Origin: a virus
Taxonomy: Duplodnaviria; Heunggongvirae; Uroviricota; Caudoviricetes
Length of the DNA: 64,000 nucleotides
IMG/VR virus record: IMGVR_UViG_3300021976_000008
Coordinates: 25,164-89,163 of that record
Strand: one strand, 5' to 3'
Made by a program: the position numbers and the translations under genes. Shown here piece after piece: positions 8,712-61,240 of this stretch. Each line of letters opens with the position of its first letter. The first letter of the stretch is position 1. Below the pieces are notes generated by a model. It saw only the letters and a list, made by a program, of their open reading frames with translations, ran no database searches and was not told the origin of the DNA.

Positions 8712-9798
8712 CGAGATTGCCGATCTTCAATTTGGGCAACGTGTCGCTGAGCTTGAGCTGCAAGTAGAGCAACAGAAGGCGAAGCTTTCGGCGAAGAGCG
8801 CGGCGTTCCGTTTGGTGACGAAGAAGCTCACGGAGCTTGAACGGCACGTACTTCTCAACGAGGCATTCTTCACAGCGACACCTGAGCCACCTCAGTGGCT
8901 CGTGCAGAAGCCGGCGCTGCGGACCCGACACGTGACTGTCTGCGCCATGCTCTCCGACACTCACTTCGATGAGGTCGTGAACCCTCGTGAGGTCAACAGC
9001 GTCAACGCCTACAACCGAGAGATAGCGACACAGCGGCTACGACGGTTCTTCGACAAGGTCATCAGCCTGCCTCGTGACCACTTCGGTGGTCACGAGTACC
9101 AGGGCGTCGTCATCTTCATGGGCGGCGACATGATCTCTGGCGACATCCATGAAGAGCTGCGCGAGACCAACGAGGACACCATCCTCGGCACCTGCCTCTA
9201 CTGGTCCGAGCAACTCGCCGCCGGTTTCAGCATGCTCGCCGATGCCTATGAGCAAGTACACGTCATCAGCGTGTGCGGCAATCACGCTCGACGCACTCGC
9301 AAGGAGAGAGCGAAGCTTCGGGCTCGGGACTCCTTCGACTGGCTGCTTGCCCACATGACAGCTCGTGCGGTGTCGGCCGAGAACGTGACATGGCAGATCC
9401 CAGAAGAGACCGACGCTCGGGTCACGGTGCAGAACACTCGTTATCTCCTCACTCACGGGAACCTGGGTTTCAGTGGAGGCGGAGGAATTGGCGGGGCCTG
9501 GATGTCGATTGTTCGAGGGGACCTGAGACGCCGGCAGCGCGAGAACGCTGCCGGCGAAACGTACGACACCTTGCTCGTCGGTCATTGGCACTGTTACCGA
9601 ACCGGCGGTGAGTTCGTCATCAATGGGTGCTTAAAGGGCGTGGACGAATATGCGTACTCGCGCTCGTTCGGCCTAGAGCCTCCGAAGCAGGCGCTTTGGT
9701 TGGAGACAGCGGACTATGGCCCCTTTGGTCACACGCCGATCTACTGCGCCCCCATGCTCCCCGATGGCCGGATCGATCGCAAGAACGAAGGTTGGTAA
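8698..9798 (+). CDS. calcineurin-like metallophosphoesterase with N-terminal coiled coil
   Basis: Motifs DTHFDE, GDMISGDIHEE, GNHAR, THGN typical of the metallophosphatase superfamily. Confidence 0.7.
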   Translation: MGVADEIADLQFGQRVAELELQVEQQKAKLSAKSAAFRLVTKKLTELERHVLLNEAFFTATPEPPQWLVQKPALRTRHVTVCAMLSDTHFDEVVNPREVNSVNAYNREIATQRLRRFFDKVISLPRDHFGGHEYQGVVIFMGGDMISGDIHEELRETNEDTILGTCLYWSEQLAAGFSMLADAYEQVHVISVCGNHARRTRKERAKLRARDSFDWLLAHMTARAVSAENVTWQIPEETDARVTVQNTRYLLTHGNLGFSGGGGIGGAWMSIVRGDLRRRQRENAAGETYDTLLVGHWHCYRTGGEFVINGCLKGVDEYAYSRSFGLEPPKQALWLETADYGPFGHTPIYCAPMLPDGRIDRKNEGW

Positions 9799-11503: not shown

Positions 11504-12102
11504 TGCGACCCGGCGTCACGGTCGTGATTCCGACCATCCCACCTCGCGTTGACATGCTCGAACGCGCTATCCGCTCGACCATGCTTCAGACAAGGTCACC
11601 AGAGGCCCTCAGCGTCGCCCTGGACCTCTCGCACGAGGGCGCGGGTCCCACAAGGACCCGAGCCCTCCGCAACGTCTCTACGGAGTTCAGCGCCTTCCTA
11701 GACGACGACGACTACCTCTATCCCAACCACCTCGAAACGCTCATGGCCGTGCAGGAGCAGACAGGCGCCCTCGTCTGTTGGTCATGGTGGGACGGGAACC
11801 GAGTCTGGGACTACGAGTGCGAGGAACGGCGCTGCCCGGATAACTGCCATCGACACAAGGCGATGGACTTCGAGCACCCGCACCTCTTCGGGATCACCTA
11901 CCTGGTGAACACGGAACTCGCACAGCAGTGCGAGTTCCCCGGACCGGAGCCTGGCGAGGAGTTCTATGGCAACGAGGACTACCACTTCCTTCTACAACTG
12001 ACCAAGCTTACCAAGCCGAGCGACTGGGCTCACGATCCCCGGATCACCTGGCACTACTCCGTCCACGGGGGCAACACGAGCGGCCGAGGCGACCGATGGT
12101 GA
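11503..12102 (+). CDS. glycosyltransferase family 2
   Basis: VTVVIPTIPPRVDMLERAIRS...AFLDDDD (GT-A DxD) ; start overlaps upstream stop. Confidence 0.75.
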   Translation: MRPGVTVVIPTIPPRVDMLERAIRSTMLQTRSPEALSVALDLSHEGAGPTRTRALRNVSTEFSAFLDDDDYLYPNHLETLMAVQEQTGALVCWSWWDGNRVWDYECEERRCPDNCHRHKAMDFEHPHLFGITYLVNTELAQQCEFPGPEPGEEFYGNEDYHFLLQLTKLTKPSDWAHDPRITWHYSVHGGNTSGRGDRW

Positions 12103-14838: not shown

Positions 14839-15796
14839 GCGAGTCCTGGTCACAGGCGGCCGGGGCTTCGCCGGCCGCCACACGATCGAGCATCTGCTTG
14901 CTACGACGGATTGGCACATCACCACGCTCGAACGGCCACGGCACCAGCCGTCCATCAGCGATCGCCTCGTGCAACTGCCACACGATCTACGCAAGCCGAT
15001 CCCCGACTGGCTGAGCGAGGATTGGATCGGCCACGTGGATGCGGTGATCCACCTCGCCGCCTCGGCGGATGTGCATCAGTGCTTAAAGGCCCCGTCTGAG
15101 CACGTGCTCAACAACGTGGGTGGCGTACTGACAATGCTCGAATGGGCACGCTCACGGCGCCTGAGCCACTTCGTGCTGGTATCGACCAACGAAGTCTACG
15201 GGCCGACCCTCGTCGGCCCGGACGGGAAGAAGGAGTGGTCGCCGATCATTCCCGCGACGCCCTACTCCGGCAGCAAGGCGGCGCAGGAAGCACTGGCGAT
15301 CTCGTGGTGGCGAACGTTCGATGTTCCCGTCGTCATCACCAACACGATGCAGCTCTTTGGCATTGGGCAACCGAACGAGCGATTCATCCCGACTGTCGTC
15401 AGGCACTTGACGCGAGGCGAGCCCGTACCGGTCTATGCCCTCTGGACCGGCAGCGAATGGCGTTCGGCTAGTCGATGCTGGACCTATGTCAACAACCACG
15501 CTGACGCCCTCAGATGGATTCTGAGCCGCGGGCCTCAAGCCTCGCCTTCGCGCCCCGCTCGATGGAACATCGCTGGCCCAGAGTTGAGCTGTGAGCGACT
15601 CGTGCGGCGCATCGCTGAGCTGCTTGGAGTCGAACCGGAGTTCGAGTTTGTCGAGAGTGACACCGCTCGTCCTGGCCATGAGCTGAGGTACTCGCTCGAC
15701 ACCACGAAGATCCATGACGCGGGTTGGAGCGAGCCATTCGACTTCGATTACGCGTTGGCGGAGACCGTAACGGAACTAGCGAGGGGAAAGCGATGA
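14831..15796 (+). CDS. NAD-dependent epimerase/dehydratase (NDP-sugar 4,6-dehydratase/4-epimerase family)
   Basis: VLVTGGRGFAGRH (GxxGxxG) and YSGSKAAQE (YxxxK) catalytic motifs. Confidence 0.8.
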   Translation: MAKRVLVTGGRGFAGRHTIEHLLATTDWHITTLERPRHQPSISDRLVQLPHDLRKPIPDWLSEDWIGHVDAVIHLAASADVHQCLKAPSEHVLNNVGGVLTMLEWARSRRLSHFVLVSTNEVYGPTLVGPDGKKEWSPIIPATPYSGSKAAQEALAISWWRTFDVPVVITNTMQLFGIGQPNERFIPTVVRHLTRGEPVPVYALWTGSEWRSASRCWTYVNNHADALRWILSRGPQASPSRPARWNIAGPELSCERLVRRIAELLGVEPEFEFVESDTARPGHELRYSLDTTKIHDAGWSEPFDFDYALAETVTELARGKR

Positions 15797-16989
15797 AGCG
15801 CCATTTCTGTGCCGCCTGCGGCTACGACAACCTTGAGATGTTCCTCGACCTCGGGCTGTCGCCAATCGCCGATGCCTATACGAGCGAGCCACGCGAGGTC
15901 AGTCCTCGATTCCCGCTTCAGGTGGGGGTCTGCACGGGCTGCTGGCTCGTGCAGCTCTTGGAAGTCGTTGACCATCAGATCCTGTTTGGCACCGGCTACA
16001 GCTTCTACAGCTCTGCATCGGCGCCGCTCTCGGCTTACCACGAGGACTACGCCACCGATGTCCTGAAGGATTTCCGTCCTTTGGCAGAACGGCTGACTGT
16101 CGAGATCGGATGCAACGACGGCGACATGCTGTATCACTTCGCCGAGGCGGGATGCAGGGTACTAGGAGTCGACCCGGCCTCTGGGCCGGTGTCGGTCGCT
16201 CGCACCCACGGGCTCGATGTCCGAGAAGAGCCGTTCTGCCTGAACACCGCTAAGCAGATCGTCGGCGAGCATGGCCCGGCCGGCGTCGTCATTGCCAACC
16301 ACGTCCTCGCTCATGTCGAGTCGGTGAGCGGTGTCCTTGAGGGCATTGCCTATCTACTGGCCGACGATGGCATTGCTTTCATCGAGGTGCAGTACCTGCC
16401 GGACCTCCTCGTGAACAATGCCTTCGATCTCATCTACCACGAGCACCGCAACTTCTTCTCGCTCACGAGCCTGACAAGCGCCCTAAGCCAATGGGACCTA
16501 CACGTAGCCAAGGTCGAGCTGACCGACCGACAGGGGGGCTCTCTTCGTGTCTGCGTCACCAAGCGGCCAGGCCACAACTCCGGCAGCGATCGCATCATTG
16601 CCAAGGAAGCCTGGCTCAATCAGGTCGGGGTCTACCGCGGGTTCCAGGGGCGAATCGAGCGCATCCGAGATCGACTGCTCGACCTGATCCACGGTGAGTT
16701 CGAGGGGCAATGCGTCGCTGGCTACGGCGCCCCGGCCAAGGCGACCACGCTTCTCAACTACTGCTCGTTGACCGACAGCGACATCAGCTTCGTGATCGAC
16801 TCCACGGCCGCCAAGCAAGGCCGCTACATCCCGGGCACGGGCATCCTGATCGTCAGTCCAGAGACCCCAATTGACTCTGCCGACGCGATGCTTCTTTTGA
16901 GTTGGAATTACTCCGCGCAGATCATCCGCAACAACGCCGACTATCGAGGTAAGTGGATCATCCCGATCCCGGCACCGATGGTCCTATGA
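15793..16989 (+). CDS. NDP-hexose C-methyltransferase (TylC3-like: Zn-ribbon N-domain, class I SAM MTase, C-MTase C-domain)
   Basis: CAACGYDNLEMFLDLGLSPIADAY N-terminal zinc domain; GCNDGDML SAM motif; C-terminal GYGAPAKATTLLNYC. Confidence 0.75.
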   Translation: MKRHFCAACGYDNLEMFLDLGLSPIADAYTSEPREVSPRFPLQVGVCTGCWLVQLLEVVDHQILFGTGYSFYSSASAPLSAYHEDYATDVLKDFRPLAERLTVEIGCNDGDMLYHFAEAGCRVLGVDPASGPVSVARTHGLDVREEPFCLNTAKQIVGEHGPAGVVIANHVLAHVESVSGVLEGIAYLLADDGIAFIEVQYLPDLLVNNAFDLIYHEHRNFFSLTSLTSALSQWDLHVAKVELTDRQGGSLRVCVTKRPGHNSGSDRIIAKEAWLNQVGVYRGFQGRIERIRDRLLDLIHGEFEGQCVAGYGAPAKATTLLNYCSLTDSDISFVIDSTAAKQGRYIPGTGILIVSPETPIDSADAMLLLSWNYSAQIIRNNADYRGKWIIPIPAPMVL

Positions 16990-24073: not shown

Positions 24074-24324
24074 ACGGCTGGCTCCTTGCCATGGAGACGG
24101 AGTCGGCGAACGCGATCTTCTACATCTGCGTGGCAGCCGTTGCCGTCGTCTTCATCATCTGCGCAGCGTGGGTCTTGCGGGGCTGGGGTCCTCTGCAGGG
24201 GCCAGCGGTCAAGGTGAGTGATCCGCCCATGTGGTCAGAGACGACGGTTGAGTACGGGCCAGCAGCGGCATCGAGTGCTCCCGCTGCGGACAAGACCGAA
24301 GAGGCGACAGGAGAACAGCAGTGA
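24070..24324 (+). CDS. membrane protein (84 aa)
   Basis: TM helix AIFYICVAAVAVVFIICAAWVL. Confidence 0.45.
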   Translation: MNGWLLAMETESANAIFYICVAAVAVVFIICAAWVLRGWGPLQGPAVKVSDPPMWSETTVEYGPAAASSAPAADKTEEATGEQQ

Positions 24325-24809
24325 GATCCCCCACAGTCAACGGAGACCTCGATGGGGCCGCATTTGCCGTCCAGGTTGGAGCCCGACTCCGAGCCTTGCG
24401 TAAGGCCAGGATGTGGTCGCTTCAAGACGTCGTGAACCGGCAGGCCGGTTGGAGCGCCTCGGCGATAGGAGCCTGGGAGCGAGGCTCACGCGCCATCAGC
24501 GTGCCCCTCCTCTACGAGGTCGCTGCTTTCTACGGCGTCTCTGTCTCGCTTCTACTCGGCGGCGACCGTGAACTGAAGCCGAAGCCCAAGCAACGCCGGC
24601 TGGTCTTCGATCTCGAAGCCCTGCAAAGCACTCCCGACGCTGCCATGGTCGAGCGCTTCGTCCGGACGATCATCGTCGAGCGCGGCGACTACAACGGTCG
24701 GGTCCTGACGATCCGCGACGACGACATGAACGCGATCTGCACGCTGGTCGGCGTCGAGACCCACGCCGAGGCGATCGCTCAGCTCGACAACTGGGGCGTA
24801 CTCGCGTGA
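24321..24809 (+). CDS. helix-turn-helix (XRE-like) DNA-binding protein
   Basis: LRALRKARMWSLQDVVNRQAGWSASAIGAWERG HTH; GTGA coupling. Confidence 0.55.
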   Translation: MRSPTVNGDLDGAAFAVQVGARLRALRKARMWSLQDVVNRQAGWSASAIGAWERGSRAISVPLLYEVAAFYGVSVSLLLGGDRELKPKPKQRRLVFDLEALQSTPDAAMVERFVRTIIVERGDYNGRVLTIRDDDMNAICTLVGVETHAEAIAQLDNWGVLA

Positions 24810-25059: not shown

Positions 25060-25248
25060 CCAGCGCCATCTGGCCCTAGCTTTACCCCTGTCGTCAGTAC
25101 GGCGGCAATCCATCATCAACACCAACTGAATGCCGATTCCGTAGAACACCCGCCCAGGCGGGTGTTCTACGTTTGTATCTCCGTGACTCGGAGAGCCCCG
25201 GGCGATCGTATGAACGCCAGCTCGGATGTCGTCCGGTAGACGCGGAAA

Positions 25249-25279
25249 GGCCCGGCCCTTTGGGGCCGGGCCTTTGTCG
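25249..25279. terminator. bidirectional rho-independent terminator GGCCCGGCCC-TTTG-GGGCCGGGCC with T-runs on both strands
   Basis: Perfect 10-bp stem plus flanking TTTG / TTTCC. Confidence 0.7.
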
Positions 25280-25285
25280 AGGAGA

Positions 25286-25888
25286 TCACTCCGGCGTCGG
25301 CGTCTCCGCCGGCTTGACCTGGTACAGATGCGGTGCCCGGCCGCGACCGGTGTAGTCGGGCGTCGGACCCAGCTTCTCGACCTGACCAGAGGCAACCAGC
25401 TCATCGAGGGCGCCGCGGACGGTGGCCTGGCTGCTGCCGATGGCCTCGATGACCTCGGCGAGCTGGAAGGGCTTCGTCAGGGTGAGCACGTGGGCCTTGA
25501 CCGCCTCGACCGGCACGGCCTTCGCCCGCAGACGAGCGGCACCGCCGAGCTTCGGACGAGAGACGGTGATGTCGAAGCCGGCGGCACGCAGCACCTCGGG
25601 CGGCACCTTCAGATCCGTGAACGCCTTCCACGGGACACCCGCCTCCTCACTCCATGCCTTCGCATGGGCGACGAACCCCTCACGCAGCGGTGCCTCGTCC
25701 ATGTTGGTGGCCGCGTCCAACGCAGCGAAGGCCTTCAGCTTGTCGATCGGGTCGATCGCCCCGGCGACATCCTTGGTCGCCTTCTCGACCTCGTCGGCGT
25801 CGATGAGCTGCCTCGGGTCGTCGAGATAGAGCATGTAGTTGCGGACGGCGTCCTCGGGCTTGGTCTTATCGGTGGTGGTCTTCGGCAT
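25286..25888 (-). CDS. winged-helix DNA-binding protein (200 aa), terminator-flanked stand-alone unit; candidate regulator
   Basis: C-terminal QATVRGALDELVASGQVEKL wHTH; hairpin terminators on both sides. Confidence 0.5.
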   Translation of the reverse strand: MPKTTTDKTKPEDAVRNYMLYLDDPRQLIDADEVEKATKDVAGAIDPIDKLKAFAALDAATNMDEAPLREGFVAHAKAWSEEAGVPWKAFTDLKVPPEVLRAAGFDITVSRPKLGGAARLRAKAVPVEAVKAHVLTLTKPFQLAEVIEAIGSSQATVRGALDELVASGQVEKLGPTPDYTGRGRAPHLYQVKPAETPTPE

Positions 25889-25969
25889 AGCCGGCACCCT
25901 AGCGCTTAGAGAGAAGGATGCGATGGATCATCACGAAACAGGCAAGAAAAATCCCCGTCGACGCGGAAA

Positions 25970-25993
25970 GGCCGGCTCTCATCGGAGCCGGCC
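25970..25993 (-). terminator. terminator hairpin GGCCGGCTC-loop-GAGCCGGCC followed by TTTCC on minus strand, downstream of integrase
   Basis: Stem-loop 40 bp after the integrase stop codon. Confidence 0.6.
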
Positions 25994-26033: not shown

Positions 26034-27578
26034 CTAAGCCGCCGCTTCCCCGGTACCCGCTGGCGCATTGTCCATCGCGATGGGTGTAAGGCAGCGAGTC
26101 CCATCGCGCCCGGGGAGGTCTCGGGGGACGCTGGGGTCGTTGCGAGTCCAGATGCGGAACTCCCCGCCACGCTGGACGGCGATGACCTCGAAGGCATCGG
26201 CTAGGAACGCTCGCCTCTCTTCGATACCGAGCGTCTCCCAGATCTCGCTGAGGTTCACGGGCAGAGCAACGCCGAGCACGGCGTTGCGAGCTTCAGCGAC
26301 AGCCTCGCGAGCTTCCATTACCCGAGCCAGACGAGCCTGTTGCCCGTCCTCGACCCAGGACTTGCCCAGAACCCGCCCCATTTCGATCGTGCTGTCCGAG
26401 ACGAGGAACTCCCTCAGCTCTGCCTCTGCGGTCTCCTGCTCCAACAGCGCGGCTTCTAGGGCGTCTGTGGACACCTCGCCACGAGCGAAGCGATCGCAGC
26501 ACGGACCGAGGAACTTGGTCCTGAAGACCTCCTCGACCGCTGCCTCGATGACGTCAGCTCGGATACGGGCCGGCGCCGGGCACTTGCCGAACGTGTGGTT
26601 GCGGCGGCAGTCGTAGTAGCGGTAGTGGCCGTAGGCGTTCTTGGTGCCGACGCCGCGCATGGTGACACCGCAGCCGGTGCAGCGGATGATGCTGGTGAGC
26701 TTGTACGTGGCCTCGTCGTTCCGCAGGACGTTCCGGTTGTGAGCGTTGGCTCGCTGCCACAGATCGAGCGACACGATGCCCTTGTGGGCGTTGAGGTTCA
26801 CGAACTCACCCGAGGTGATCTCGCCGAGGTAGACGCGAGACTGGACGAGGCGGCGCACACTGTTGATCCCCCAGAGGCCGCCTTCTCTAGTCCGGATGCC
26901 CCCTTCGTTGAGCCAGTCGGCGATCTTGGCCCAGGCCATTGGCCCGGTAGTGCCGTCGGGTCGGGGAGCTTCGGCTCGCCGCTCGAACATGCCGACGACC
27001 CAGTCCTCCTCGTCGGGGACGGACACCAAGCGACGCGTTCCGATGAGCTTGCCGTTCGGACCGGGCACGCCGTCCTTGCGGTAGCCGTAGGGCTCGGCTG
27101 TGTGGACACCGTTGGCGACGCGGCGCCGGGTGACGTCCTCCCAGCCCTTGGTGACGGACTTGAGGTACCACTCAGCCATCCACAGCAGCACGGCCAGGAT
27201 CAACTGCGACAACTCGCTACCGTCGCCGTAGATGCCGTCCTTGACGGCGATGAACACCTTGCCGTTGTTCTCCAACTCGCGCACGGCCAGGAGACCACCG
27301 ATCATGTCGCGAGCGAGGCGATCGACCTTCATGACGATGATCCCGTCGGCCTCGTCAGCAAGAACCCCAGCGACGGCTTTCTGAAGCTCCTTGCGCTCGA
27401 CCGTCTTGCCCGAGACCGAGTCGGACTCATCGAACCAGTGCACGATGCGGTGGCCGTTGGCCTTGGCCCAGGCCTCGCAGGAATCGACCTGCTCGAAGGG
27501 CGAGTGGTACGAACCGTTGTCCGAATCCGAGCGGTTGTTGTCTCGGGAGACACGCTTGATGCCGAAGAGGTCAGCCAT
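26034..27578 (-). CDS. int: large serine recombinase (phage integrase, resolvase catalytic domain + recombinase domain + zinc ribbon/coiled coil)
   Basis: N-terminal resolvase motifs with catalytic Ser (VSRDNNRSDS...), RLARD, long C-terminal recombinase domain with Cys cluster CTGCGV..C. Confidence 0.9.
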   Translation of the reverse strand: MADLFGIKRVSRDNNRSDSDNGSYHSPFEQVDSCEAWAKANGHRIVHWFDESDSVSGKTVERKELQKAVAGVLADEADGIIVMKVDRLARDMIGGLLAVRELENNGKVFIAVKDGIYGDGSELSQLILAVLLWMAEWYLKSVTKGWEDVTRRRVANGVHTAEPYGYRKDGVPGPNGKLIGTRRLVSVPDEEDWVVGMFERRAEAPRPDGTTGPMAWAKIADWLNEGGIRTREGGLWGINSVRRLVQSRVYLGEITSGEFVNLNAHKGIVSLDLWQRANAHNRNVLRNDEATYKLTSIIRCTGCGVTMRGVGTKNAYGHYRYYDCRRNHTFGKCPAPARIRADVIEAAVEEVFRTKFLGPCCDRFARGEVSTDALEAALLEQETAEAELREFLVSDSTIEMGRVLGKSWVEDGQQARLARVMEAREAVAEARNAVLGVALPVNLSEIWETLGIEERRAFLADAFEVIAVQRGGEFRIWTRNDPSVPRDLPGRDGTRCLTPIAMDNAPAGTGEAAA

Positions 27579-27808
27579 CAGCGGACTTCCATGAACTCGG
27601 CAATGCCTTCGACCGCCTGGGACTTGGTCTTCCAGTAGTGCCCGCATTCGCATGACACCGAGGCGAACCCGCCAGCTTCAGCGAGGGCCTCGCCCATGAT
27701 CATCTCGCCGGTCTCCTCATCGATCGAGACGTCCTGCACGAGGACGCCTCGACGGATTACGCGGAAGGTGAGTGAGCCGCAGCTGGTCGGGCAGTAGAGA
27801 CGGCGCAT
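27578..27808 (-). CDS. zinc-ribbon protein (76 aa) translationally coupled to integrase
   Basis: CPTSC...CECGHYW; TGATG overlap with int start. Confidence 0.5.
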   Translation of the reverse strand: MRRLYCPTSCGSLTFRVIRRGVLVQDVSIDEETGEMIMGEALAEAGGFASVSCECGHYWKTKSQAVEGIAEFMEVR

Positions 27809-28185
27809 CACTTGGCCTTCCTCAGACTCATCCGCAGAGCGTCGACGGTGATCGGGGCGACGTAACCATGCGGGCTGCGAACGTGCTGCTTGTAGCAGCC
27901 GGCATCTTCGACCCACACCGGAGAGCCGACGACCTCGTACTCGCCGATCGGGTCGCTGAACTTCGATCCGACCGGCACGCCGTTGACCTCTGGCTGCTCG
28001 GGCAGCGTGATCTTGGCCGGAGCCCATTCGGCGCTGGCCAGCTCGACTCCGCCGATGTCGGTGGAGAGCCGGTGTCGCAGATCCTCGGTGAACGTGTCGA
28101 TGATGTCGGCGGCGAGATCCTCGGGGTCGGTCAGGGCCGGGTCAAGGTCGTCAGAGACCTTGACCCGGATGATCAGCTCGGCCAT
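27808..28185 (-). CDS. hypothetical acidic protein (125 aa)
   Basis: Coupled ORF in the int operon. Confidence 0.5.
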   Translation of the reverse strand: MAELIIRVKVSDDLDPALTDPEDLAADIIDTFTEDLRHRLSTDIGGVELASAEWAPAKITLPEQPEVNGVPVGSKFSDPIGEYEVVGSPVWVEDAGCYKQHVRSPHGYVAPITVDALRMSLRKAK

Positions 28186-28352
28186 CAGGCCACCATCCCG
28201 TTGTTCAGGTCGTCGTCCATCGTGCGACCTTTGGCCTCGTACCAGGCCTGCACCTGCGCCCGAGACGCGAGTCCCAGGCGGCCGTAGAAGGCGTTGATCT
28301 GTCGTCGGGTGTCGTCGTCCACCTCGACGGTGTAGCTCACTCGTACTCGCAT
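28185..28352 (-). CDS. small protein (55 aa), ribbon-helix-helix-like N-terminus (low confidence)
   Basis: MRVRVSYTVEVDDDTRRQINAFYGRLGL; coupled ORF below the 60-aa ORF-track cutoff. Confidence 0.35.
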   Translation of the reverse strand: MRVRVSYTVEVDDDTRRQINAFYGRLGLASRAQVQAWYEAKGRTMDDDLNNGMVA

Positions 28353-28573
28353 CACTCAGCCGCCTTGTGCTTGTGCGTGTTGAACTCGTCGTCCGCCTCT
28401 GCCCGGCTCACCGCTTGAGCGGGGAAATCGTCGCACTCCTCGCAGTGGACGTCGTAGGCGGTGTGCTTCGACTCGCCGACCACTCGGCCGTACCGCTCGA
28501 TCTCGTAGGTGACCTCCGTCTCTACGAGCTGCAACGGCCCGTTCTCCTCGATGACGTGGCTCGTGATGGACAT
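28352..28573 (-). CDS. hypothetical protein (73 aa)
   Basis: ATGA coupling. Confidence 0.45.
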   Translation of the reverse strand: MSITSHVIEENGPLQLVETEVTYEIERYGRVVGESKHTAYDVHCEECDDFPAQAVSRAEADDEFNTHKHKAAE

Positions 28574-28881
28574 CAGGTGTTCTCCTTCAGGTTGTCGTAG
28601 CCAATTCGGACAGCGTGCTTGCCCCACTGCTCATCGAGCAGTATCAACAAGCTGCGGCCAGTCTCGGTCAGGTGGCTCACGTGCTCACCCTCACCGATCT
28701 GGACCTTCTCGACGCATCCCCAGCGACGCAAGGTCGCCAGGCACGTGCGCATGCCCCTGGCCTCCGAAAAGGGGGTCGTGGGGCCGGAGAGTTTCAGATC
28801 GAGGGATAGGCACGTGAGCACCTTGTGATGACCGCTGAGCGACCGAGCTGCCATCTGCTTGAGCGTCGGGGCTGCTGCCAT
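28573..28881 (-). CDS. winged-helix transcriptional regulator (102 aa), first gene of the integrase operon
   Basis: LATLRRWGCVEKVQIGEGEHVSHLTETGRSLL wHTH pattern. Confidence 0.5.
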   Translation of the reverse strand: MAAAPTLKQMAARSLSGHHKVLTCLSLDLKLSGPTTPFSEARGMRTCLATLRRWGCVEKVQIGEGEHVSHLTETGRSLLILLDEQWGKHAVRIGYDNLKENT

Positions 28882-28898
28882 AACCGCAGCGTACAGCT

Positions 28899-28948
28899 AG
28901 TTGTACCAAGTTGACATCCCCCAACGGCAGCGAGAACTTGGTACAACT
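28899..28948. promoter_or_regulatory. 50-bp element with perfect 14-bp terminal inverted repeats (AGTTGTACCAAGTT-22 bp-AACTTGGTACAACT): candidate serine-integrase attP or operator
   Basis: Read directly from sequence; 18 bp upstream of the int-operon start; contains TTGACA. Confidence 0.4.
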
Positions 28949-28987
28949 ACTCTGACCAGGAGGTTCAGGGGAAACGGGTGACGGATG

Positions 28988-29305
28988 TCATGATCGTGAG
29001 GGCCGTCGTCGTTCCTGCAAGTCAGTCTCATCGTCGCTGTCGCCAGGAACCAGTCCTATCGCCACCCACACCTTGCGAGCGCAGGATTGGCACACGACGA
29101 CCATCTCCGGATCAGCGGCCATCTCACGAACGAGTTCGTCGTCCTCGACCTCGGCGCCACACTGGTGGCAGGCGAAGTCACTCACGAGAACCTCCGACGG
29201 CTGGCCCGGCTCGCCGCACCAGTGACACGCCGACTCGGGCCAGTGAGCGCAGTGGTCGCAAGGGGGGATGGCCAAGCGGCCCGGCTCTACGACGGTCACA
29301 CTCAT
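28988..29305 (-). CDS. zinc-finger protein (106 aa, three CxxC pairs, acidic tail)
   Basis: CDHCAHW..CHWCGE..CHQCGA..CQSCA. Confidence 0.45.
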   Translation of the reverse strand: MSVTVVEPGRLAIPPCDHCAHWPESACHWCGEPGQPSEVLVSDFACHQCGAEVEDDELVREMAADPEMVVVCQSCARKVWVAIGLVPGDSDDETDLQERRRPSRS

Positions 29306-29334
29306 GAGCGTACTACTTGTCCGGGAACGAGGGC

Positions 29335-29359
29335 GGCCCCCGGCCGAGAGCCGGGGGCC
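29335..29359. terminator. GC-rich stem-loop GGCCCCCGGC-CGAGA-GCCGGGGGCC (no U-tract)
   Basis: Perfect 10-bp stem between convergent/tandem leftward units. Confidence 0.4.
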
Positions 29360-29571
29360 GCAGCGTGAGTCACGCAGAGCGCGACCGCACATGTTTGGCG
29401 GGAGAGACACTACTCGAAGGGTCGCCCGTCAACAAACATGCGAGCATCGGAGCTGGCTACTGATTCATGGGTTCTGATGGCGGACCGGCCGAGGATCTCC
29501 CTCGGCACCACAACACCAGCTCCGACGCTGGCAATGATCCTAGTCGTCCTCGATGTCGCGGGGAGCCGCAT

Positions 29572-32721: not shown

Positions 32722-32795
32722 TAGCGATGACGGGACTTGAACCCGCGACATCACGCGCCAGAGGCGTGCGCTCATACCAACTGAGCTACATCACA
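32722..32795 (-). tRNA. tRNA with anticodon CUG (Gln) on minus strand
   Basis: Hand-folded cloverleaf: D-arm GCTC/GAGC, anticodon stem CACGC/GCGTG loop CTCTGGC, T-arm GCGGG-TTCAAGT-CCCGT, 7-bp acceptor with one T-T mismatch at 1:72; no CCA encoded. Confidence 0.65.
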
Positions 32796-59612: not shown

Positions 59613-60050
59613 ATGCGAGCAATTGAGTTTGTGCGTAAGTATCGGATCACCGGTGAGATCATCGATGGTCCGAATACGTCAAGCGATGGTGGTTGGGAGC
59701 ACTACGCAATGCAAGTGCGTCTATCCCTCACAACTGGCGTGGGCGAGATTCGACACTTTGAAATGTCGTTCATGGCAGGCGTTGCGTGGAGCATGCCGGA
59801 GTTCACCGGTGATAGCGACACTCTTCCTGCTAAGTCGGTTGGGGAGATCATCGGCTCGTTGGCTGACAATCTCCGTAGCCGCGATAAGTCATGGGGCGAG
59901 TACGCGAGCGACTTTCATCCCGGTGACCCCAATGACTTGACGGTGCGCGAGCACAACACGTGGGAAGAAGTGATCGCGCAGGGTCGCAAGGTCGCCGATT
60001 GGCTTTACAGTCAAGCCATGCTTGACGACATGGAAAGTGTGGTTGAGTGA
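59613..60050 (+). CDS. hypothetical protein (145 aa)
   Basis: GAAAGGGAAGGAAGG RBS then ATG. Confidence 0.5.
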   Translation: MRAIEFVRKYRITGEIIDGPNTSSDGGWEHYAMQVRLSLTTGVGEIRHFEMSFMAGVAWSMPEFTGDSDTLPAKSVGEIIGSLADNLRSRDKSWGEYASDFHPGDPNDLTVREHNTWEEVIAQGRKVADWLYSQAMLDDMESVVE

Positions 60051-61240
60051 TCGAACTATTCCTCTTAGGCGCCGCGGCTGGCGCGGTGGTCAAGGCGCGG
60101 CAAGCGCGCCCGGCCAGGGTCGGCCCTAGACGTCGTAGGGGGCGAGCGTGGGAGCTACCCGGCCTAGATGTACTGGCAAGCGCTCCGCGGCCCTTAGGGG
60201 GCGATCTAGGGGGCTATGGCGAGACCCTGATCTCCGGACTCTCTGCCCGTGGCCTAGAGGTCCGCTTAGCTGGGACCGTCACCGGTCCCAGCGTCGTCCG
60301 GTACGAACTAGACCTAGGCGACGCTCGACTCTCACGGTTGACGGGGCTTACGAGGGATATTGGCTACCTATTGGGTGCTTCTAACCCTCGCATCCTGACT
60401 CCCGTAGACGGTCGGAGCGTCGTAGGTATCGAAGTGCCGCGTAGGGAGCGTGAGCTAGTCACGCTTGCGTCCGTCCTCGGACGCAAGCGTCTAGGGGTCC
60501 TAGACGTAGCCATAGGGCTAACGACTGACGCCATGCCAGTAATGGCAAACCTCGCGCAGCTACACCACGTGCTAGTAGCGGGAGCTACTGGCGCGGGCAA
60601 GTCGACATTCCTCAATTCGCTTATCGTAAGTCTGCTAGTAGGTGCTAGCCCTAAGGACTTGCAGCTACTGCTAATCGACCCTAAGCGAGTTGAGCTATCA
60701 CAGTACGCAGGCTTACCTCATTTGTGGCGACCGATAGCCAAGGATGGCGGTGACGCCATAATCGCATTGGTGGCAGTCGTAGAGGAAATGAACCGACGCT
60801 ATGCGTTCATGGAGCGCAAGGGTTTCCGGAACATCGCGGAGGCTAGGGCGAAAGGCGTTGACCTTCCTTACTTGGTTGTCATCATCGATGAGGTAGCAGA
60901 GTTGATGATGGTCGCTAGGGAGCACGTAGAGCCTGCCATAGCGGGTATAGCTCGCTTAGGACGGGGCGCGGGAATTCACCTCGTGCCAGCTACGCAGAGA
61001 CCAGACGTGAAAGTCATTACCGGAGAGATCAAAGCAAACATCCCGGCTCGTGTTGCCTTTGCAGTCGCTAGCAACACTGATAGCAGGGTGATACTTGACG
61101 CCAACGGAGCGGAGAATCTCACCGGTAAAGGTGATCTCCTCTTTAGTACCGGCGGACATGAGTTGACACGAGCGCAAGGCGCGTACGTGACAGACGACGA
61201 AATTAGGAAGGTAGTGCAATGGTGGATAAAGCAAAGGTGA
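60047..61240 (+). CDS. FtsK/SpoIIIE-family DNA translocase (TraB-like), 397 aa
   Basis: Walker A VLVAGATGAGKSTFLNSL, Walker B VVIIDEVAEL, N-terminal TM helix. Confidence 0.8.
   Translation: MIELFLLGAAAGAVVKARQARPARVGPRRRRGRAWELPGLDVLASAPRPLGGDLGGYGETLISGLSARGLEVRLAGTVTGPSVVRYELDLGDARLSRLTGLTRDIGYLLGASNPRILTPVDGRSVVGIEVPRRERELVTLASVLGRKRLGVLDVAIGLTTDAMPVMANLAQLHHVLVAGATGAGKSTFLNSLIVSLLVGASPKDLQLLLIDPKRVELSQYAGLPHLWRPIAKDGGDAIIALVAVVEEMNRRYAFMERKGFRNIAEARAKGVDLPYLVVIIDEVAELMMVAREHVEPAIAGIARLGRGAGIHLVPATQRPDVKVITGEIKANIPARVAFAVASNTDSRVILDANGAENLTGKGDLLFSTGGHELTRAQGAYVTDDEIRKVVQWWIKQR

Follow-up and report, generated by a model that had tools for sequence, protein, structure and literature searches.

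Why is the large serine integrase gene of a phage preceded by a chain of small, tightly packed genes, and do those genes serve recombination? The question is raised by a stretch of 64,000 nucleotides (the window in what follows; positions 25,164 to 89,163 of IMG/VR virus record IMGVR_UViG_3300021976_000008, Caudoviricetes), in which five small genes, named A to E here, lead leftward into an integrase gene, int. A conserved inverted-repeat element lies just 5' of gene A. By a narrow preference, we read the locus as the integration module of an uncultured temperate actinobacterial phage, made up of site, promoter, variable cargo and integrase, with the inverted repeat as the candidate phage attachment site (attP). 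The phage lineage is undescribed. The first-pass annotation of this DNA had proposed that one of the small proteins could be a recombination directionality factor (RDF) or integrase regulator, or that two of them could form a toxin-antitoxin-like pair; these functional ideas appear unsupported by the comparisons presented below.

Gene organisation of the integrase unit

Six genes make up the unit:

28881..28573, minus strand: gene A, 102 aa, basic, isoelectric point (pI) 9.0, orphan
28573..28352, minus strand: gene B, 73 aa, acidic, orphan
28352..28185, minus strand: gene C, 55 aa, strongly conserved where present
28185..27808, minus strand: gene D, 125 aa, acidic, pI 4.6
27808..27578, minus strand: gene E, 76 aa, four-Cys, putative zinc-binding, stop overlapping the int ATG
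27578..26034, minus strand: int, 514 aa, large serine integrase

Judged by its domains and conserved residues, the 514-aa protein is a complete, bona fide large serine integrase. The Pfam domains Resolvase (PF00239, E 1e-17), Recombinase (PF07508) and Zn_ribbon_recom (PF13408) are all present, the best PHROGs assignment is the integrase family phrog_95 (E 3e-73), and across 13 aligned relatives the catalytic residues R9, S11 and R12 and the zinc-ribbon cysteines Cys300, 303, 324 and 333 do not vary, which upholds the identity first given to this gene. Its nearest kin are found outside the described phages. The integrase is less than 30% identical to any integrase among 50,697 deposited phage records, the window DNA has no match in the same records, and no relatives are present in the INPHARED phage or PLSDB plasmid collections. 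A protein search returned 14 related integrases that are 43-62% identical, all of them metagenomic.

How tightly are the six genes joined? At each of the five consecutive junctions, from A/B to E/int, the minus-strand sequence reads TGATG, so that stop and start codons share one A, and the table of open reading frames (ORFs) agrees. The overlap between the stop of the 76-aa gene and the int ATG, which had been pointed out before, is among them. On an 89-kb contig that is nearly identical (ENA ERZ27267804 k141_1022293), a metagenome gene caller gives these six genes as well. By hand count in the gene-caller table, one-base overlaps occur at 8 of the 35 co-oriented junctions of a 16-kb locus; because five of these eight are the consecutive ones of this unit, the run of overlaps is denser here than elsewhere in the genome. 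The small ORFs A-E show the coding signature of a genome of about 62% GC, with GC contents of 0.80 (gene A) to 0.89 (gene B) at third codon positions (GC3) and of 0.36-0.48 at second positions (GC2); the GC3 of int is 0.83. No promoter-like or terminator-like sites were predicted within the six-gene unit, and the window sequence has no internal leaderless promoter directly 5' of int. The five TGATG junctions, together with a conserved predicted promoter exactly at the start of the 102-aa gene, bear out the earlier view of int as the distal gene of a compact leftward unit of translationally coupled genes.

A conserved inverted repeat at the head of the unit

What stands at the head of the unit? 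A conserved element of about 80 bp (28879-28957) is found just 5' of gene A. Its parts, read in the direction of transcription, are as follows:

28950..28957, minus strand: motif GGTCAGAG, directly outside the left arm
28935..28949, minus strand: left arm TAGTTGTACCAAGTT, candidate P half-site of attP, perfect 15-nt complement of 28898-28912
28913..28934, minus strand: asymmetric spacer of 22 bp, holding the core CCGTTGGGG at 28919-28927
28923-28924, minus strand: TT dyad centre, candidate crossover dinucleotide
28898..28912, minus strand: right arm AACTTGGTACAACTA, candidate P' half-site, at -17 to -31 from the proposed transcription start
28893..28888, minus strand: -10 hexamer TACGCT, ending 6 nt ahead of the gene A ATG (28881), predicted leaderless promoter

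The contigs of the relatives were retrieved, and further loci were added from viral and metagenome scans. A unit was defined as the genes chained from the upstream element to int, and the units of 11 phages (the window and 10 others) were compared all against all; L074 is the same phage as L005. The element is found in all 11 phages, each time heading the int unit, and its parts follow a common order: GGTCAGAG, arm, 7 nt, CCGTTGGGG, 6 nt, complementary arm, 2-4 nt, TA(C/A/T)GCT, 6 nt, ATG. The core CCGTTGGGG is invariant in the 11 phages and its flanks vary. Either GGTCAGAG or GGTCACAG is present in nine of ten aligned phages, with L075 differing at that position.

The arm sequences vary between phages but stay complementary within each of the ten phages in which this was scored. 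Complementarity extends to 91.5% of arm positions, compared with 65.5% for shuffled arms and 34-48% when the partner is slid. Both sides have changed in 11 of 13 arm pairs, and none of 500 shuffles reached the observed values. The symmetry is confined to the outer part of the element: when the two halves are aligned on the centre, 11-15 of the outer 15 nt are symmetric, against 3-7 of the inner 11 nt. More distant relatives, with integrases 35-40% identical (and a partial int in one case), have an equally long inverted repeat and, after it, a -10-like hexamer. The cores of these relatives are altered and still TT-centred: CCGTTCGGG in L014, CCGTTCGGTG in L086 and ATCTCTTGACTTT in L080.

Does the element work as RNA or as DNA? 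Departures from arm complementarity are mostly not G-U (11 of 16), and an RNA stem is therefore not specifically indicated. In L009 the upstream gene is divergent, which points to a DNA-level signal and means that the unit needs a promoter of its own. As Rfam also has no match for the element, a known RNA was rejected. A repeated operator was rejected too, since each of the 15-nt arms is unique within the 64-kb window; the GGTCAGAG motif is not a repeated operator either. A further candidate operator to the left of the element, GTGAAC-N6-GGTCAC, was discarded because it is not enriched.

Gene content of related units

Which genes lie between the element and the integrase in other phages? In every relative, int closes a co-oriented string of small genes, and the statement in the first-pass annotation that serine integrase genes usually stand alone is misleading for this lineage. 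The number of genes between the element and int ranges from 1 to 10 across the 11 units:

Window: 5 genes before int
L003: 4 genes before int
L004: 6 genes before int
L005: 10 genes before int
L007: 2 genes before int
L008: 4 genes before int
L009: 1 gene before int
L011: 1 gene before int
L013: 3 genes before int
L075: 2 genes before int
L085: 5 genes before int

The content of these units is a mosaic. No gene family is universal among the 11 units, and the direct upstream neighbour of int changes in almost every phage, yet it nearly always abuts int tightly. In other phages, several of the families are also encoded away from the unit, on the opposite strand; this includes the N-terminal domain of D, which lies outside the unit in L013. 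This domain of about 55 aa is the commonest module (6 of 11 units) and is joined to differing C-terminal halves; a word search with gene D had found two homologues only. Gene C has a homologue in just one of the compared units, that of L005 (4789-4953), where it is 85% identical although the integrases are only 50% identical. This difference suggests either recent exchange or strong constraint. No homologues of A and B were found in related loci.

A perfect 13-bp hairpin (CCGGGTCAAGGTC/GACCTTGACCCGG) is present at 28137-28168 (minus strand), in the 5' coding part of gene D. L007 retains this hairpin, and L005 has it with another sequence. Either an RNA structure or a side effect of conservation at the RV...DP residues may account for it.

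Predicted promoter and terminator, and downstream genes

Where would transcription of the unit start and end? In actinobacteria, leaderless transcription is recognised by a TANNNT hexamer placed 6-7 nt ahead of the start codon. The arrangement TA(C/A/T)GCT-N6-ATG is found with identical spacing in all 11 phages although their first genes are unrelated, and this conservation makes a leaderless promoter at the start of gene A highly probable. Downstream of the integrase, three features were noted:

25945..25993, minus strand: terminator region after int, with the hairpin GGCCGGCTC/GAGCCGGCC, then TTTCC, then a second hairpin with a T-run
25286..25901, minus strand: gene of about 200 aa and its own predicted leaderless promoter, TAGGGT-N7-ATG, with the -10 at 25896-25901 and the ATG at 25888
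24321-24809, plus strand: BldD-like Xre-family protein (HTH_31 and BldD_C), convergent on the int region

The stretch between the int stop and the hairpins is conserved, and the terminator region is kept in those loci where the downstream gene of about 200 aa is present. The gap after int was itself tried as attP and rejected, since the repeats there are short and in most loci degenerate, and they form terminator hairpins. When the post-int repeat of L013 was checked by eye, the arm motif of the upstream element did not recur in it.

The gene of about 200 aa lies directly downstream of int in seven phages, in which it is 43-60% identical, and it has no homologues in deposited phages. Its product has a C-terminal winged-helix-like region, with weak matches to helix-turn-helix (HTH) families (IclR, GntR, TrmB, Lrs14). 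The BldD-like protein is a candidate immunity repressor, and its gene is also found near int in L007, L010 and L014; in L014, both genes sit upstream of the element instead. It is these two genes, and not A-E, that travel with the integrase, the gene of about 200 aa being inherited with int but outside the operon. Strong hairpins are also found at 25140-25171 and 25246-25275, between convergent gene sets; the first resembles a bidirectional terminator.

Is the inverted repeat an attachment site?

The attP sites of serine integrases are 45-50 bp long, consist of inverted repeats around a spacer of about 20 bp, and adjoin int (PMC5311408). The 52 bp of arms and spacer described here (15 + 22 + 15 bp) have this size and geometry, and the same layout is found in ten phages, its dyad maintained by co-variation. 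The outer repeats of the Bxb1 attP lie at about the same distance from the centre as the arms do here. The candidate site always heads the int unit, yet it is 1-10 genes apart from int (1.3 kb in the window). The 52-bp element is probably attP, a judgement that we hold with some reserve.

How might such a module work? A leaderless transcript would start at gene A, run through A-E and int, and end at the hairpins just after int, with translation handed from gene to gene via the TGATG overlaps. Because translation would be coupled in this way, integrase output would be set by one promoter and by coupling to the preceding gene. The 52-bp site, centred on the TT of CCGTTGGGG, would serve as attP; it directly precedes the promoter and overlaps it in part. 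The zinc-ribbon domains of the integrase would contact the co-varying outer arms, and the conserved core would be the sequence common to the phage site and a shared host attB. From the arm nearer to the promoter (-17 to -31), bound integrase could dampen its own operon. After integration, promoter, cargo and int would remain together at one prophage end, the five small proteins being accessory cargo drawn from a pool of small genes that these phages exchange. What the sequences show directly is how the genes are arranged, that int encodes a large serine integrase, that the element is conserved and symmetric about a dyad, and that the small genes are mosaic. We infer promoter activity, attP identity, autoregulation and the cargo role alike from sequence comparison.

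Several observations weigh against this reading. No integrated form, in which a half-site is joined to host DNA, was found in genome, metagenome or viral scans, and the element is unbroken in all contigs that span it. When viral sequences were scanned for right half-sites, only the known contig and two chance matches turned up. Within what the pattern scan can detect, none of 185,579 species-representative genomes holds a relative of the integrase, and two genome scans were empty. The distance of 1.3 kb between site and int departs from characterised systems, in which the two are adjacent. At gene A, a generic sigma-70 scan did not call a promoter, and no conserved -35 is found among the aligned phages. 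One contig of 46.5 kb (L003, Logan SRR16016041_20497) starts 2 nt before the CCGTTGGGG core. Its start may be an attP/attL branch point or, equally well, a strain polymorphism, because two variants of one phage differ in 2-4 nt directly left of the core, exactly where L003 breaks off. Finally, a perfect inverted repeat over a promoter also fits an operator.

Could the element then be an operator for a phage regulator, with the true attP elsewhere? We consider this unlikely, but it is the alternative that survives best. It stays open because no integrated form was found, the element is intact in every contig, and the L003 break is ambiguous. The perfect dyad overlaps the promoter, and candidate regulators (the repressor, the protein of about 200 aa, or gene A) are encoded nearby. 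An operator set, however, is not what is found, as the arms occur once in 64 kb, and the centres of the half-sites are about 37 bp apart. Such a spacing is far for a simple HTH dimer and typical of serine-integrase attP. None of the candidate regulators accompanies the element consistently: gene A has no homologue in other phages, and several loci that retain the element lack the BldD-like gene and the gene of about 200 aa. The integrase is the one DNA-binding protein that all loci encode next to the element. No other attP-like repeat is present near int that could take its place, the post-int repeats behaving as terminator hairpins. Attachment-site function thus remains the preferred reading of the element.

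Are the small proteins partners of the integrase?

If the element is attP, what are the proteins encoded between it and int? A-E have no match in Pfam, PHROGs, NCBIfam or PADLOC at lenient thresholds, and none to any known RDF, toxin, antitoxin, winged-helix or ribbon-helix-helix family; A, C, D and E have none among PDB sequences. Gene A had been described as a winged-helix regulator, an impression that appears to hold at the level of a motif only. The label 'RHH-like' (ribbon-helix-helix) given to the 55-aa protein likewise drew no match in the family and PDB searches. Structure prediction and Foldseek searches did little to clarify the two proteins modelled. The AlphaFold2 model of A, which has helices followed by strands, is too weak for use (mean predicted local distance difference test score, pLDDT, 55) and has no winged-helix match, and the better model of E (mean pLDDT 76) matches no solved zinc ribbon.

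Gene E deserves closer attention as the direct neighbour of int. A word search found only E itself, whereas a full HMMER search of 1.84 billion cluster representatives returned eight homologues. All are 75-86 aa long, C6, C10, C53 and C55 are invariant in the eight, and one is named 'Zn finger protein' by its source. The label 'zinc-ribbon' given to the 76-aa protein by the first-pass annotation is therefore partly justified: the four cysteines are conserved throughout, while no match was found for the fold.

Is one of these proteins an RDF or another direct regulator of the integrase? The 76-aa protein is the top candidate, in an arrangement like that of lambda xis-int: it is small, it has four invariant cysteines, and the stop of its gene overlaps the start of int. 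In L005 its homologue, 40% identical, is likewise inside an int unit, and Cys-rich small proteins recur just 5' of int in L003, L009, L013 and L075. In the closest relative (int 62% identical, on a 5.3-kb contig available without DNA), the genes listed before int are of 73, 60, 125 ... 77 aa. The last of these ends 3 nt before int, so that the adjacency of E and int may persist there, although the 77-aa gene is known by size alone. Known small RDFs can adjoin int, as does phiJoe gp52 (PMC5311408). RDFs are also structurally diverse and those of serine integrases have no common fold (PMC11795197), and for that reason an RDF could be present among A-E despite the lack of homology. The possible persistence of this adjacency and the diversity of RDFs both count against regarding A-E as cargo.

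The comparison between phages nonetheless makes a role in directionality improbable. In nearly every relative, the neighbour of int is non-homologous. The homologue of E in L005 lies six genes away from int, and that on the 1.1-kb contig L090 is followed by a 148-aa gene and not by int. The demonstrated small RDF gp52 of phiJoe provides a point of reference: it occurs solely in phages whose integrase is of the cognate type, and the two co-evolve (PMC5311408). No such association and co-evolution with the integrase is seen for any of A-E, none is present in most relatives, and E in particular is not co-inherited with it. The position corresponding to gp52, just upstream of the element, holds no conserved gene in related loci. 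RDFs bind the integrase at the junction of zinc ribbon and coiled coil and switch its directionality (PMC11795197). Since they inhibit attP x attB recombination (PMC5311408), an RDF co-expressed obligatorily with int from a single promoter would be expected to inhibit integration. Excisionase and RDF families in Pfam and PHROGs show no similarity to A-E.

The small proteins are thus not likely to be dedicated partners of the integrase, as had been suggested, because the unit content is mosaic with no universal gene, the neighbour of int is variable, and none is co-inherited in the way of gp52; some of their families also occur outside the unit. Within the module proposed here, A-E are likely to be cargo and not integrase cofactors.

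Two further ideas can be treated briefly. It is very doubtful that the 55-aa and 125-aa proteins are a toxin-antitoxin-like or defence pair carried as prophage cargo: the direct support for a pair is the C/D-like adjacency in two independent phages, the window and L005, to which the high identity of C relative to the integrases and a place near a probable prophage end, where accessory genes would be typical, may be added, but no toxin, antitoxin or defence model matches at E<=1 (Pfam, NCBIfam, PADLOC) and PHROGs likewise has no match, D is acidic (pI 4.6) where type II toxins are usually basic, and D-like proteins with differing C-terminal halves occur without C in L004, L007 and L085. We give scarcely any credence to the notion that the whole block, from the attP-like site to the post-int hairpin, is a self-mobilising module moved or rearranged between phage genomes by the integrase, at which three observations hint: in L013, direct copies of the 12-nt core CCCGTTGGGGGT (~11545-11580 and ~9190-9205) flank the block, the loop of the hairpin right after the int stop being this exact 12-mer of the upstream-element core, while the post-int loop elsewhere has only loose similarity to the core; in four phages, similarity to the others stops right after the post-int hairpin; and in L014 the block and the gene of about 200 aa have changed sides relative to each other.

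Comparison with known integration systems

How does this locus compare with characterised ones? It resembles the int-attP modules of the actinophages phiC31, Bxb1 and phiJoe in the resolvase, recombinase and zinc-ribbon domains of its integrase. A further likeness is that the int transcription unit is headed by a candidate site of roughly 50 bp in which inverted repeats enclose a spacer of some 20 bp, as in the general description of such modules (PMC5311408). The phiJoe site and int are separated by 18 bp (PMC5311408), whereas 1-10 small genes intervene here. In contrast to the known modules, the integrase has no relative above the 30% identity level in the deposited phage records, and recombination is predicted.

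A distal int with small genes upstream is also a feature of the lambda xis-int operon and of the rep-int operons of phages with integration-dependent immunity (BPs and clusters G, N and P). These operons encode tyrosine integrases and have a conserved upstream partner, xis or the repressor; here the recombinase is a serine enzyme and the upstream genes are not conserved. In the immunity phages, attP is within the same transcription unit as int (PMC9262239). The candidate site described here lies upstream of the promoter -10, and integration would therefore not truncate a gene.

Small proteins encoded close to int include the RDFs gp52 of phiJoe and Xis of phiRv1. The gp52 gene is divergently transcribed across attP and co-evolves with the integrase (PMC5311408). 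By contrast, A-E are co-oriented with int, translationally coupled and mosaic, and they have no detectable similarity to known RDFs. They are more reminiscent of the mosaic small-gene arrays of actinobacteriophages, in which short, packed and mostly orphan genes are shuffled (for the general picture, see PMC9262239). Such arrays differ from the unit described here, which in every relative has the conserved site and promoter at one end and int at the opposite end. Two features appear to be new: the variable gene block between site and integrase, and a predicted site that overlaps a conserved leaderless promoter.

Should the 52-bp element prove to be attP, about a dozen divergent, uncharacterised large serine integrases with predicted sites would become available as orthogonal tools for genome engineering. 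An attachment site over the promoter of the int operon suggests that the integrase limits its own synthesis by binding its own site, and the layout, an unusual one, suggests that the cargo comes to lie at the edge of the prophage, driven by a promoter that stays the same. The locus also calls for caution in annotation, as physical and translational coupling to int alone is no evidence for a recombination cofactor.

Phage context and neighbouring genes

The window is phage-like throughout, with genes for tail proteins, exonucleases, a primase-polymerase and an FtsK-like ATPase. An actinobacterial host is suggested by the BldD-like repressor candidate, by DUF397 and DUF7873 proteins, by the GC content and by the leaderless promoters.

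Directly upstream of the element, at 28988-29305 (minus strand), is an ORF with four CxxC motifs. It conflicts with a called 93-aa gene on the plus strand (29087-29368), and their GC3 values (0.74 and 0.70, respectively) do not separate the two clearly. Elsewhere in the window, a C-methyltransferase-type enzyme (Methyltransf_13/14) is encoded at 15724-16989 and the ATPase, which is FtsK/SpoIIIE-like, at 60047-61240, both on the plus strand. A tRNA-Gln gene (anticodon CTG) lies at 32722-32795 (minus strand), inside a leftward gene string.

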